This document shows positions 969 to 6,263 of a DNA stretch of 64,000 nt, piece after piece. The notes beneath the pieces were generated by a model, which was not told the DNA's origin, did not search any database, and worked only from the letters and a program-made list of their open reading frames with translations. Source of the stretch: Escherichia coli (GTDB taxonomy: Bacteria > Pseudomonadota > Gammaproteobacteria > Enterobacterales > Enterobacteriaceae); assembly GCF_051903065.1 (NCBI RefSeq), contig NZ_CP178438.1. One strand, written 5' to 3'. The position numbers were made by a program, and so were the translations under genes. How positions within the stretch are numbered: the first letter of the stretch is position 1; every line of letters starts with the position of its first letter.

Positions 969-1181
969 ATGAAAACTTTTATCAAAACTTTACTCGTTGC
1001 TGTAACTATTCTGTTCTCTGTCTTCGCTACTGCGAAACAAGTAAAACTGCCAAATAACATCAAATACGTTAATACTACAGAAGCGTTTTCCTGTACCGAA
1101 ATTGACGGTATGAATTGCCAGACAAAGAATCAGTTCAACTATAAAGATAACAGCTATGTGGTGATGCTGCCAACTTACTGA
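969..1181 (+). CDS. Small secreted protein, 3' end replaced by IS1 terminal repeat
   Basis: AAGGAG RBS 7 nt upstream of ATG 969; N-terminal signal peptide. Last codons (VMLPTY*) are encoded by the IS1 left inverted repeat that starts at 1160, so the native C-terminus is lost. Confidence 0.45.
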   Translation: MKTFIKTLLVAVTILFSVFATAKQVKLPNNIKYVNTTEAFSCTEIDGMNCQTKNQFNYKDNSYVVMLPTY

Positions 1182-1214
1182 TTTAGTGTATGATGGTGTT
1201 TTTGAGGTGCTCCA

Positions 1215-1490
1215 GTGGCTTCTGTTTCTATCAGCTGTCCCTCCTGTTCAGCTACTGAAGGCGTGGTGCGTAACGGTAAAAGCACTGCCGGACATCAGCG
1301 CTATCTCTGCTCTCACTGCCGTAAAACATGGCAACTGCAGTTCACTTACACCGCTTCTCAACCCGGTACGCACCAGAAAATCATTGATATGGCCATGAAT
1401 GGCGTTGGATGCCGGGCAACTGCCCGCATTATGGGCGTTGGCCTCAACACGGTTTTACGTCACTTAAAAAACTCAGGCCGCAGTCGGTAA
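1215..1490 (+). CDS. insA: IS1 InsA
   Basis: 91-aa [27 protein letters not shown]..., the characteristic IS1 InsA zinc-finger protein. Confidence 0.9.
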
Positions 1491-1912
1491 CCTCGCGCAT
1501 ACAGCTGGGCAGTGACGTCATCGTCTGCGCGGAAATGGACGAACAGTGGGGATACGTCGGGGCTAAATCGCGCCAGCGCTGGCTGTTTTACGCGTATGAC
1601 AGGCTCCGGAAGACGGTTGTTGCGCACGTATTCGGTGAACGCACTATGGCGACGCTGGGGCGTCTTATGAGCCTGCTGTCACCCTTTGACGTGGTGATAT
1701 GGATGACGGATGGCTGGCCGCTGTATGAATCCCGCCTGAAGGGAAAGCTGCACGTAATCAGCAAGCGATATACGCAGCGAATTGAGCGGCATAACCTGAA
1801 TCTGAGGCAGCACCTGGCACGGCTGGGACGGAAGTCGCTGTCGTTCTCAAAATCGGTGGAGCTGCATGACAAAGTCATCGGGCATTATCTGAACATAAAA
1901 CACTATCAATAA
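1409..1912 (+). CDS. insB: IS1 InsB (transposase reading frame, expressed as InsAB' by -1 frameshift)
   Basis: 167-aa ORF overlapping insA in the -1 frame; typical IS1 organisation. Confidence 0.9.
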
Positions 1913-2216
1913 GTTGGAGTCATTACCCACTTTTTGAAAGCAACCAGATGATAGGGTAAAGATAAGTGCTGTGTTCGGCGGTAAATTCTCAGTACCACCC
2001 ATTGAAAATCGAACGGGGAAACGGGAAATTTGGAGCAAAGTGCTGGTATGCAAGGGATGTGTGGATCTCTGTGACGGGAAAACTACGGGGATATTGCGGG
2101 AAAGGGACGGGGGAAAGGTTCTATGTTGATGCTGATCAGATCTTTTCTAGTTTGCACTTGCTCATACCGTGAACAGCGTTAGTGTGGTGAGCATCATTTG
2201 CCAAAAGGGTTAGACA

Positions 2217-3440
2217 ATGAATGCCATACAGCAGCATGCTGCAGCGCTTCTGGATAGTGTTGCACGATGGAATGAAGTGACGACTCTGGCTAAATTACGC
2301 TATCAGGCCGAGCTGGCACCTGATTTCAGCCTCATGGACTGGCTGAAGAATGACGAACTGGCCCTTTCACGCTATCTACGATTTTTGCTTTCTCCTGATG
2401 AAACTCATGGTCAGTCATCACTGTTTCTAAAGGGATTTCTCTCCCTCATTGAAAAGAGTGGGCACGATAGCCCTATAACCACCGGAGGTAGCCATCATAA
2501 AGTCAGGGTTGATTATGAAGTCACTATTGAAAACAGAAGAAAGATAGACCTGTTGATGACATCTTCAGAGGGTTTTATTGCTATCGAAAATAAGCCATGG
2601 GCAGCAGATCAGGAAAATCAGTTACGGGATTATGCATTATGGCTGAACAAATGTGAAAGACCATGGAAGTTAATTTATTTATGCAATCAGGATCCGGGAG
2701 AGTGGACTCTTCCTGGCAATACTCCGGAAGCACTGAAGCAACATATCCTAACGATATCCTGGCATGAAGTCGTCAAATGGCTGAACGAATGTTTATTGCA
2801 TGTTCGGGCAGGTGCGGTCAAAATATTTGTTGAATCATTGATTAAATATATCAACCAGTCAATTAATGGTGAGTTCATAATGGATAATAGTCGTGAGTTG
2901 TCAGAAATCATCCGCAAGGATAGCTACTCTATAGAATCGGCATTTATGATTTTTAACCAGATGAATGAGGTTCGCAACGATTTATTCAAAGAGTTTATTT
3001 CTGATTTAAATGCCAGTTTCATTAATCATCCTTATTCTATTGAAACCTCGGATGGGGACCTATCGAAACGTGGGGCTAATTTTTATATCCCATTAAGCCC
3101 GGATGGTAATTACTCTTTGTGCTGGGAGTTTGAATATTCAGGTTATTATGGTTTATTTTTTGGCATTTCGGGAGTGAGTCTGGTTGAAGGTCAATCTGCA
3201 AAAATAGCTGCTGCCATGTCAGAGATATTTCCACACACGCAGGGTAAATCCAGCGAATACTGGTCATGGTGGAGCAGGGGTTTAGATCTGCAAGGGAAAA
3301 ATCGCATTCCTAGAGACTGGGGTAATGATGGAGCGGTTTGGGCGAAGCTCCGTGAGCGTGATGCAGACAGCATTTTTGCAGCCACCCGTGAAGCGATTCT
3401 GGCCGTTCATGAAAAGCTGGATATGGACTTATTGCGTTAA
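2217..3440 (+). CDS. Hypothetical protein with PD-(D/E)xK-like nuclease motif
   Basis: 407-aa ORF; by-eye motif D-x(n)-E-x-K in ...RKIDLLMTSSEGFIAIENKPW...; no family recognised. Confidence 0.55.
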   Translation: MNAIQQHAAALLDSVARWNEVTTLAKLRYQAELAPDFSLMDWLKNDELALSRYLRFLLSPDETHGQSSLFLKGFLSLIEKSGHDSPITTGGSHHKVRVDYEVTIENRRKIDLLMTSSEGFIAIENKPWAADQENQLRDYALWLNKCERPWKLIYLCNQDPGEWTLPGNTPEALKQHILTISWHEVVKWLNECLLHVRAGAVKIFVESLIKYINQSINGEFIMDNSRELSEIIRKDSYSIESAFMIFNQMNEVRNDLFKEFISDLNASFINHPYSIETSDGDLSKRGANFYIPLSPDGNYSLCWEFEYSGYYGLFFGISGVSLVEGQSAKIAAAMSEIFPHTQGKSSEYWSWWSRGLDLQGKNRIPRDWGNDGAVWAKLRERDADSIFAATREAILAVHEKLDMDLLR

Positions 3441-3484
3441 TTATTTGATCGTTTTCAGAAAATGCCTGAAGTGAGAGAGGGGAC

Positions 3485-4021: not shown

Positions 4022-4454
4022 ATAAACCCTAAGACCGCTACACTTTTGCCAATCCAAGTTTACTTCCGGTTTCCATGAAGTGGTGAACCTTTTTCAACAG
4101 CAGCACATTGAACGACATTGGTGATTGCGAGTTATCGTGTCATGAAAAGCTTGCCATAGTCTGCTCAGTAATTGAATAACTGTAATCCTGTGGCTTTTGG
4201 CTATATCAGTTGGAGTAAGCTGGTTGAAGGAGCGCTCATAACCGATTTTATTGAGAACCGTGAACAAGGCCGGGAATCCTTTCCGGGATTGTGAGGGGTT
4301 GAGCAAGCCTACGGGCGCGGTAGTGTTTTTTACACCAGCCCGGAACAGTTTGGAAACCAGAGCTTCGTTTAGGGTTGTGTCTATTGTTGGTGGGTAAGAT
4401 CATTTTTTGTGTTTAGTCAGCCAGCATCATATGAATTTAACCGAGTGAGCAGCA

Positions 4455-5300
4455 ATGGGGATTTTCAATAGAATCAAAAAGGCTCTTGGTTTGGAAGTGC
4501 GAAAGGGGTTTCGACGCTGGTCCACTTCTGAGCTTGAAGAGAAGAAGGCTTATCTAGAAAACAAGTCCGCAGAAGAGTTCACTGCAAAAGATCACCATCT
4601 GTCGGCAGAATGGGTCATTCAACGTTATTTACCAGTAGGTGAAGAGCCTACACCCGAACAATGGTCAGAGGTCTCTGGTGACATTCAGCAGAAAATTGAC
4701 ATCAATTTAAATAAGGCTGCTGCGGGTGAACTCCTTAAAACTGAGTATATGCAACCCGCTCGCTATACCCTCACCAAGGACGACTTCCTAAGTGATATAG
4801 TGCCCGCTTTCTCAAGGTTTGATTGGCTACCAAATCCTCATTCAAAGGATTGGCAAGGCCGCGAAATCTGGGAATCGCTCTATGAATTTACTCAGCCGTA
4901 TTCTTTTAAGCATGGTGAAGCAAAAGATGCTCTGATGAGTATCTGTGACACCTACCAGGCTATGCACCTAGTAATGGATCTAGCGCGGACATACTCTCAA
5001 ATTTGCCAAGCGCAGCTTGATGGCTCGACGAGGATTAAGGTGGTTTGTTCTGGCAAGCATTGTGATGACTGCATGACTCTTGTTGGCACGAAACTGGGCG
5101 TTGATGAACTGCTAGCTACATTTAAGAATGGAGTTCCAAAATTTCCTCATCCTTTGCATTATGAAGATGAAGTTCGTTGGTGCCCGGCACCATTTCTATC
5201 GCCGGAGAGCCCACTTAAGGATGACGATGATCCAGAGTTTCATGCCTTTTTAGTTGATCTGTTTGATGGACCAGAGAAGCACAAAGACAAATCAAATTGA
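4455..5300 (+). CDS. Hypothetical protein (281 aa)
   Basis: ORF with ATG start; Cys cluster CSGKHCDDC; product not recognised. Confidence 0.5.
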   Translation: MGIFNRIKKALGLEVRKGFRRWSTSELEEKKAYLENKSAEEFTAKDHHLSAEWVIQRYLPVGEEPTPEQWSEVSGDIQQKIDINLNKAAAGELLKTEYMQPARYTLTKDDFLSDIVPAFSRFDWLPNPHSKDWQGREIWESLYEFTQPYSFKHGEAKDALMSICDTYQAMHLVMDLARTYSQICQAQLDGSTRIKVVCSGKHCDDCMTLVGTKLGVDELLATFKNGVPKFPHPLHYEDEVRWCPAPFLSPESPLKDDDDPEFHAFLVDLFDGPEKHKDKSN

Positions 5301-5389
5301 AATCTACGTCAGGAATAGAGCCAATAGAAATGTTGAAGGGGAGGCCAGATCAAATGCAATTATGCCCTTATCTGGGTAGTGACTCCAAC

Positions 5390-5893
5390 TTATTGATAGT
5401 GTTTTATGTTCAGATAATGCCCGATGACTTTGTCATGCAGCTCCACCGATTTTGAGAACGACAGCGACTTCCGTCCCAGCCGTGCCAGGTGCTGCCTCAG
5501 ATTCAGGTTATGCCGCTCAATTCGCTGCGTATATCGCTTGCTGATTACGTGCAGCTTTCCCTTCAGGCGGGATTCATACAGCGGCCAGCCATCCGTCATC
5601 CATATCACCACGTCAAAGGGTGACAGCAGGCTCATAAGACGCCCCAGCGTCGCCATAGTGCGTTCACCGAATACGTGCGCAACAACCGTCTTCCGGAGCC
5701 TGTCATACGCGTAAAACAGCCAGCGCTGGCGCGATTTAGCCCCGACATAGCCCCACTGTTCGTCCATTTCCGCGCAGACGATGACGTCACTGCCCGGCTG
5801 TATGCGCGAGGTTACCGACTGCGGCCTGAGTTTTTTAAGTGACGTAAAATCGTGTTGAGGCCAACGCCCATAATGCGGGCTGTTGCCCGGCAT
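5390..5893 (-). CDS. insB: IS1 InsB
   Basis: 167-aa ORF, near-identical to copy A InsB. Confidence 0.9.
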
Positions 5894-6087
5894 CCAACGC
5901 CATTCATGGCCATATCAATGATTTTCTGGTGCGTACCGGGTTGAGAAGCGGTGTAAGTGAACTGCAGTTGCCATGTTTTACGGCAGTGAGAGCAGAGATA
6001 GCGCTGATGTCCGGCAGTGCTTTTACCGTTACGCACCACGCCTTCAGTAGCTGAACAGGAGGGACAGCTGATAGAAACAGAAGCCAC
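5812..6087 (-). CDS. insA: IS1 InsA
   Basis: 91-aa ORF, near-identical to copy A InsA. Confidence 0.9.
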
Positions 6088-6263
6088 TGGAGCACCTCAA
6101 AAACACCATCATACACTAAATCAGTAAGTTGGCACCATTACCAGAAATAGTGACCAATAACTATTTATGTAAATTACATTAAAAACAAAAAAAATACTGC
6201 GCTCTTTATTTTTTACTTATTATCTGATAAAGTATCCCTCGTAGATTTATATAGGGGATGATT

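Follow-up and report, generated by a model that had tools for sequence, protein, structure and literature searches.

In the 64,000-nucleotide stretch of an Escherichia coli chromosome analysed here (contig NZ_CP178438.1; hereafter the window), three genes encoding proteins of 407, 178, and 281 aa (genes 1, 2, and 3) lie between two full-length copies of the insertion sequence (IS) IS1 in inverted orientation (Table 1). The first 12 kb of the window were 99.9% identical to strain GDSC2BY4G, in which the counterpart is an island beside tRNA-Leu (leuX). The region is probably a 3.4-kb accessory cargo patch of a CP4-type tRNA-linked island; it carries three functionally independent genes and has come to be enclosed by two inverted IS1 copies, each acquired separately. 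An earlier description made from the letters alone (the sequence-only reading) had recognised the IS1 pair and the three open reading frames, and both were confirmed here. It had also proposed that the genes form a cassette of defence or toxin cargo captured by IS1-mediated rearrangement; the relatives of each gene, the IS1 junctions, and the surrounding island were examined in this context.

Table 1. Features in and beside the IS1-bracketed region, in window coordinates.
Feature	Position	Strand	Basis
5' fragment of a hypothetical island gene (136 aa when intact), truncated by the left IS1	969..1159	+	RefSeq: incomplete, C-terminus missing (GDSC2BY4G)
Left IS1, 768 bp, left inverted repeat (IRL) GGTGATGCTGCC..., insA/insB' at 1215-1912	1160..1927	+	Repeat search, alignment, RefSeq
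Non-coding leader of gene 1	1928..2216	+	Between left IS1 and gene 1
Gene 1, 407 aa, N-terminal PD-(D/E)xK domain (residues 42-197) and ~200-aa C-terminal domain	2217..3440	+	Pfam, PADLOC profiles
Gene 2, 178 aa, predicted all-helical orphan protein	3485..4021	+	AlphaFold2 (AF2) model, family searches
IS630-family transposase remnant, ~130 bp, frameshifted fragment	~4038..4168	-	RefSeq annotation of identical sequence, AW1.7 and GDSC2BY4G
Gene 3, 281 aa, shortened homologue (stand-alone gene) of the virion-associated minor-head protein encoded after the portal gene in phages	4455..5300	+	hhalign, tblastn, Foldseek
Right IS1, 768 bp, inverted, outer terminal repeat variant (GGTAATGGTGCC...), insA/insB' at 5390-6087	5375..6142	-	Repeat search, alignment, RefSeq

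Structure of the IS1 pair

IS1 is ~768 bp long, has ~23-bp imperfect terminal inverted repeats, encodes insA and insB' joined by a programmed -1 frameshift, and generates 9-bp (8-10 bp) target duplications. The two copies in the window form inverted repeat arms at 1159-1929 and 5373-6143 that are 99% complementary, and, as the sequence-only reading had stated, they are not identical, differing at 8 positions (4, 8, 262, 293, 347, 393, 396, and 764). The IRL and the right inverted repeat were recognisable in both copies, and the IRL of the right copy, which is its outer terminal repeat, carried 2 substitutions within its first 8 bp. The insA (91 aa) and insB' (167 aa) frames were intact in both, and the RefSeq annotation of GDSC2BY4G lists both copies as programmed-frameshift transposases. 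Comparison of the outer flanks (CAGCTATGT and AGAAATAGT) and the inner flanks (CACTTTTTG and CCTTATCTG) agreed with the earlier statement that neither pair forms a 9-bp target duplication; no direct duplication of 8-10 bp was found at either copy or around the whole unit. On our reading, the window flanks also do not have the inverted-duplication pattern expected of intramolecular replicative inversion. The missing duplications point to a secondary rearrangement and do not speak against the identification of the copies as IS1.

Distribution of the three genes

The block was present in 34 of 5426 complete E. coli genomes (~0.6%), always on the chromosome, and no copy was found on plasmids. Within E. 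coli, the three genes occurred only as the whole block or as IS-truncated pieces of it. When 14 non-E. coli loci around relatives of each gene were searched by tblastn, every locus contained exactly one of the three. Furthermore, no gene 2 or gene 3 homologue was detected by tblastn and hidden Markov model (HMM) searches within 6 kb on each side of gene 1 relatives at 79 loci in 79 species (one genome per species, anchored on gene 1). Relatives of genes 2 and 3 were each found alone in varied contexts. Because the genes did not co-occur outside E. coli and the relatives of each occurred alone, the simplest reading is that they are adjacent, independent cargo and not a three-gene system, and their adjacency appears to be restricted to E. 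coli and its close relatives. In addition, genes 2 and 3 are 433 nt apart, and an IS630 remnant of ~130 bp, which the sequence-only reading had not mentioned, lies between them. With genes 2 and 3 split by this remnant and no two of the genes together at the loci examined outside E. coli, the proposed three-gene cassette was not upheld.

Strain G3/10 carries a second allele of the region with the same gene order, which was 100% identical to the window up to about position 3230, inside gene 1, and ~92% identical beyond. In this strain there is no right IS1, and the left IS1 lies 155 bp further out than in the window. It is therefore apparent that the gene arrangement is older than the IS1 bracket. 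The ratios of nonsynonymous to synonymous substitution rates (dN/dS) between the diverged alleles were 0.13, 0.16, and 0.24 for genes 1, 2, and 3, respectively, indicating that all three are maintained by purifying selection.

Gene 1

The sequence-only reading had noted a PD-(D/E)xK-like motif in the 407-aa protein, and this call passed profile validation. The protein matched Pfam PDDEXK_4 (PF14281; E 5.3e-22, residues 42-197) and 14 PADLOC PDC-S26 models, the best of them at E 7.4e-34 with residues 37-354 aligned to profile positions 35-364 of 413. Its D...ExK core consists of D111, E124, and K126. Among 18 homologues with identities as low as 27%, E101, E124, N125, and K126 were invariant and D111 was nearly so. 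Gene 1 is thus a predicted nuclease of the PDDEXK_4/PDC-S26 family, and the earlier statement that none of the three proteins can be assigned to a family does not hold for it. The C-terminal ~200 residues contain conserved tryptophans and matched no known domain, and neither single-sequence nor profile searches detected a relative of gene 1 in the PDB.

The PDC set comprises 145 phage-defence candidates predicted by "guilt-by-embedding". The genes behind these predictions lie within BREX, DISARM, and type I restriction-modification (R-M) loci, and the PDC systems are described as "single- and multi-gene" (bioRxiv 10.1101/2024.01.29.577857). PDC-S26 is most likely a single-gene candidate, although "S" is taken to mean "single" on our own account. 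Action as a single gene without a conserved partner is consistent with the results from the 79 species and with the variable neighbours of its relatives. In Lelliottia, Aeromonas, and Yersinia, gene 1 relatives stood alone in integrase-linked islands, next to genes such as DUF927, SIR2+cREC, WYL/WCX, or DUF2787-LRAT; TIR genes are also among the neighbours of this gene in such islands. A literature search returned no paper reporting an experimental test of PDC-S26, which was mentioned only in a pipolin survey, and no papers turned up under PF14281/PDDEXK_4 or under the RefSeq protein accessions. Most likely, gene 1 works by itself and encodes a nuclease in which the C-terminal half would serve as a sensor or regulator.

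In the leader of gene 1, a stretch of ~160 nt (2025-2186) had 77%-identical, unannotated copies in most of 280 E. coli genomes without the module, namely those whose best match was 60-80% identical. This stretch may be a regulatory or leader sequence shared among islands. No Rfam match was found across positions 1100-6300. A simple scan for promoters and terminators was uninformative: the + strand showed no promoter-like site, and the single terminator-like site was inside gene 3.

Gene 2

The product of gene 2 had no match in Pfam, NCBIfam, PADLOC, or PHROG, nor in the PDB by single-sequence or profile search, and its family comprised only 10 clusters among 5.8 billion proteins. An all-helical fold was predicted by AF2, with a pLDDT (predicted local distance difference test score) of 85 for the best model and 66-72 for the others, and this model retrieved only uncharacterised proteobacterial proteins of ~165 aa. 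Relatives were located in a Morganella island, where a type I R-M system and a UDG-like gene precede them, and others were found on two phage- or plasmid-like metagenomic contigs. A role as the antitoxin or immunity partner of the nuclease was considered and dropped, as gene 2 did not co-occur with gene 1 relatives at the 14 loci or in the 79 species examined. Of the three genes that the sequence-only reading had called unknown, gene 1 has been placed in PDDEXK_4, gene 3 was linked by hhalign to a phage virion protein as a homologue, and gene 2 is an orphan.

Gene 3

No significant match of gene 3 was obtained in Pfam, NCBIfam, PADLOC, or PHROGs (the sole Pfam match was DUF3669 at E 2.7), nor any PDB match by single-sequence or profile search. 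Its family is small: clustering at 90% identity gave 33 clusters, and a set of 1.84 billion proteins contained 125 representatives. Identity among the members is 51-87%, and 35 residues, C164, D165, C203, C206, H232, and C243 among them, are invariant; the gene is intact, stands alone, and encodes ~272 aa across beta- and gammaproteobacteria. Distant relatives of ~390 aa are encoded in ~90-kb phages directly after the portal gene; the copy in Yersinia phage fHe-Yen8-01 (gp002) is annotated as "particle associated protein" and that in Morganella phage Mecenats66 (ORF60) as "putative minor head protein". When the family profile of gene 3 was compared by hhalign with that of the phage proteins, the probability was 99.1% (E 1.4e-18) over 241 columns with the CxxC pair aligned, and a direct tblastn search with gene 3 against the phage genes gave E 2e-6 over residues 21-89. 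The AF2 model (pLDDT 82) had no neighbour in the PDB. In AFDB50, Foldseek retrieved its own family and then, with weak scores, mostly entries named "phage head morphogenesis / SPP1 gp7 / Mu F / minor capsid".

In portal-terminase phages, MuF/gp7 proteins form part of the head, and they also carry effectors that are injected (PMC5512222). Gene 3 and its relatives gave no significant match to Pfam Phage_Mu_F (PF04233), for which the best value was E 0.028 in one distant relative, and the best value for Phage_min_cap2 among the distant relatives was E 0.021. On the strength of the hhalign and tblastn links, but with no such Pfam match, gene 3 is therefore filed as a homologue of a post-portal virion protein family at the MuF position and not as a member of Pfam MuF.

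Close relatives of gene 3 stood alone, beside an integrase (Paracidovorax), between LTD-domain genes (Iodobacter), after mug (Pectobacterium), in a small region with HipA (Dickeya), and after Fic and PIN7 on an integrase-bearing element in another genome. In the neighbourhoods examined, none was located inside a phage structural module or beside portal, terminase, or capsid genes. Purifying selection on gene 3 indicates that it now serves some purpose in the cell or in a mobile element. The most obvious conjecture is that it would interfere with the assembly of phage heads.

Several small genes recurred near the relatives of gene 3. A ~200-aa protein is encoded upstream of the relative in Variovorax (locus L025, 7334-7954) and, with 74% identity, downstream of that in Dickeya (L024, 8871-9470). 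An open reading frame of 77-78 aa lies just downstream in Paracidovorax (L004, 8830-9066) and Variovorax (L025, 8794-9027), and one of 67-74 aa just upstream in Pectobacterium (L007, 7750-7953) and Dickeya (L024, 7724-7948). These small neighbours, which are absent in E. coli, may be partners or co-travelling cargo. In one distant phage-type relative of 734 aa (P0146), an intein is inserted at the conserved HPxC motif (residues ~346-700); its Hint domain is accompanied by a DUF559/Vsr-like homing endonuclease.

Junctions in carrier genomes

The inner junctions (CACTTTTTG... / ...CCTTATCTG) were identical in every carrier examined, while at least five different outer junction pairs were found in pheV, pheU, and leuX islands. 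In the window and GDSC2BY4G (leuX island), the unit is flanked on the left by the truncated island gene and on the right by a gene for a YadA-like adhesin. The left and right neighbours are yghT and the pheV integrase in AW1.7, the CaiF side and a truncated integrase in 23CRST027 (pheU island), the pheU integrase and the YadA-like adhesin in E308, and the pheV integrase-TPR region and a UvrD/DEAD helicase pair in CFSAN061761. No target duplication was present around the unit in any of these five outer contexts. Reverse-complementing the left outer junction of E308 gives the right outer junction of 23CRST027 (CAAAGATTAATA), so that the interior is flipped relative to one IS1-integrase junction. 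Such a flip is the outcome that would be expected from recombination between inverted repeats.

Sequence was also lost beside the unit. In AW1.7, the island is deleted up to yghT. In strain CUWW10, the gene cut by the left IS1 is intact (136 aa) and is followed by a DUF932-antirestriction-YeeS/T-CbeA-CbtA module. The ~288-nt remainder of this gene is absent from the window, and homology to the intact CUWW10-type locus picks up again only at position 27674, 26 kb away, at 88% identity. All five outer contexts are in related tRNA islands, and the one target examined has lost sequence. Because G3/10 lacks the right IS1, the remainder of the cut gene is lost, one junction is flipped, and AW1.7 carries an adjacent deletion, the bracket is attributed to separate insertions followed by deletions and recombination. 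These observations, taken with the identical inner junctions, the diverse outer ones, and the missing duplications, support the earlier proposal of an IS1-mediated rearrangement instead of a recent simple insertion. Intramolecular replicative inversion as the sole origin of the IS1 pair was rejected; it would leave an inverted 9-bp duplication, with the inner flank of one copy matching the outer flank of the other, and by our reading no context shows one.

From the shared junctions, the missing duplications, and the lost gene remainder, which were observed directly, we infer the following order of events. Two separate IS1 insertions would have created the bracket around an existing gene order, and the pair would then have supplied homology that travels with the unit and given rise to deletions next to it. 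The segment between the copies would flip by IS1 x IS1 recombination, and the outer neighbours would be replaced again and again, erasing the target duplications. Homology-driven exchange could have placed one and the same unit in pheV, pheU, and leuX islands.

Island neighbourhood

Upstream in the GDSC2BY4G island lie an integrase, a dynamin/GTPase/RdcB/patatin-like cluster, and further island genes. In the window, the DUF932-antirestriction-JAB-DUF987-YeeU-CbtA island module is present in a second copy with 88% identity at positions 27674-30925, 26 kb to the right of the truncated gene. This second copy suggests that two CP4-type islands were fused or rearranged to give the leuX island in the window.

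The YadA-like trimeric autotransporter gene (440 aa; 6258-7580) lies directly to the right of the right IS1, with its leader at 6143-6260. In strain ECNB21-M121, an independent IS1 insertion in the opposite orientation was found 56 bp away near this gene, and the AT-rich leader therefore looks like an IS1 hot spot. Further to the right, a frameshifted IS110-family gene (~8010-9026) adjoins a broken IS3 element (flanks 9093-12783) that carries the gene of a group II intron reverse transcriptase/maturase (ltrA; 10691-12214). A type I R-M system (HsdR of 1037 aa, HsdS, and HsdM) and then a divergent McrB/McrC-like pair are encoded at 32347-38031 and 39915-43276; the McrB/McrC-like pair scored far under the NCBIfam cut-offs for classical McrBC. 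A fim usher gene and gntP lie beyond these genes, and the neighbourhood is a defence-rich "immigration control" region.

The G3/10 allele lies in a CP4-like island beside TIR-domain and ABC-three-component genes. This island (locus L002, 1-6400) contains four or five TIR-domain genes in a run, an FRG-domain gene, and an "ABC-three component system" gene, together with a DUF2787-LRAT-DeoR set like that beside gene 1 relatives in Yersinia.

Evaluation of alternative explanations

If the three genes were one functional defence or toxin system, an operon mobilised as a unit by IS1, then their common strand, the 44-nt spacing of genes 1 and 2, their purifying selection, the conservation of their order in two alleles that are ~8% diverged downstream of the breakpoint inside gene 1, the defence-candidate family of gene 1, and the defence-rich genomic context would all find an explanation. 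Such a system would hardly be expected to leave the relatives of genes 2 and 3 alone in varied contexts, to lack co-occurrence at all 14 loci and in the 79 species anchored on gene 1, or to be interrupted by a 433-nt gap with an IS remnant, and PDC-S26 is most likely a single-gene candidate. We consider an operon very unlikely. The earlier suggestion of defence or toxin cargo was accordingly retained in part: gene 1 belongs to a predicted phage-defence family and lies in a defence-rich tRNA island, but a coherent three-gene defence cassette is not supported. The opposite extreme, that genes 2 and 3 are leftovers of a decaying prophage or satellite without present function, would fit the homology of gene 3 to a phage virion protein, the phage- or plasmid-like contigs that carry gene 2 relatives, and the IS debris that fills the surroundings. 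This explanation seems scarcely credible against two full-length open reading frames with dN/dS of 0.16 and 0.24, and against a gene 3 family that persists as an intact stand-alone gene in beta- and gammaproteobacteria with 35 invariant residues.

With regard to the bracket itself, an active Tn9-like composite transposon that transposed as a unit into several islands would account for a unit ending exactly at the IS1 ends in at least five outer contexts and for intact transposase frames in both copies. It is nevertheless an unlikely account, given that no target duplication was found in five contexts; that these contexts are all related, IS1-rich tRNA islands with shared sequence, among which homologous exchange is easy; that the junction common to two genomes in flipped configuration indicates recombination; that AW1.7 has a large adjacent deletion to yghT and the gene cut by the left IS1 has no remainder; and that the outer repeat of the right copy in the window is altered. 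Nothing in the data requires genuine composite transposition. Several points nevertheless weigh against our preferred explanation of independent cargo within a rearranged IS1 bracket. A composite transposon that moved and later lost its duplications would likewise show exact boundaries at the IS1 ends in five contexts. The shared strand, the close spacing of genes 1 and 2, and the kept order leave room for a local functional link, and there is a small chance of such a lineage-specific link in E. coli. In addition, the functions of the genes are predictions, PDC-S26 is itself a candidate family, and the Phage_Mu_F profile is not significantly matched by gene 3.

Independent cargo in a rearranged bracket amounts to ordinary island mosaicism, in which IS-shuffled cargo includes a catalogued defence candidate; these are known kinds of things, and current understanding is not overturned. 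The region illustrates that island cargo between paired IS1 copies can be inverted and relocated among the pheV, pheU, and leuX islands while the usual transposition scars vanish, and it cautions that an IS-bracketed gene set is not necessarily a "cassette". It also provides a natural E. coli allele of the predicted defence candidate PDC-S26/PDDEXK_4. The single fresh lead is the family of stand-alone head-protein homologues (~125 clusters in 1.84 billion proteins), which has no described function. It is conceivable, but rather improbable, that this family is an exapted minor-head protein, retained by bacteria or their integrative elements, that blocks or, in a satellite-like manner, hijacks head/portal assembly of infecting phages. 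If true, this would amount to a defence or piracy principle built on a structural-protein decoy. Separately, PDC-S26 may be a genuine single-gene defence.

Comparison with known systems

The gene 3 family aligns over nearly its whole length with the post-portal virion proteins of ~90-kb phages and shares the CxxC pair with them; in the fold search, mostly head-morphogenesis/gp7/MuF entries were retrieved, with weak scores. In contrast to the phage proteins, gene 3 is ~100 aa shorter, lacking the N-terminal ~85 aa and part of a C-terminal insert, and has no HPxCRG motif in register. The phage relatives are encoded after the portal gene, whereas gene 3 and its close relatives are chromosomal or island genes outside that position. 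Gene 1 resembles the PDC-S26/PDDEXK_4 candidates in its near-full-length model match, its conserved D...ExK core, and its occurrence alone in integrase-linked islands; PDC-S26 is itself only a predicted defence family, and the C-terminal ~200 aa of gene 1 have no assigned fold.

As in Tn9-type IS1 composites, two full-length IS1 copies surround non-IS cargo, and, as in IS1-mediated adjacent deletions and inversions, the interior flips between genomes and the flanking DNA is deleted or replaced. In Tn9, the IS1 copies are in direct orientation. Here they are inverted, no context has a target duplication, and the cargo includes no resistance or other selectable gene. The setting corresponds to that of the CP4-57/CP4-44-type tRNA-linked islands (pheV, pheU, and leuX), where a tyrosine integrase adjoins tRNA-Phe or tRNA-Leu and the DUF932-antirestriction-JAB-DUF987-YeeU/CbtA module occurs together with defence cargo that varies. 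Compared with these islands the region has no unusual feature, and the IS1-bracketed module is one rare cargo patch among their contents.

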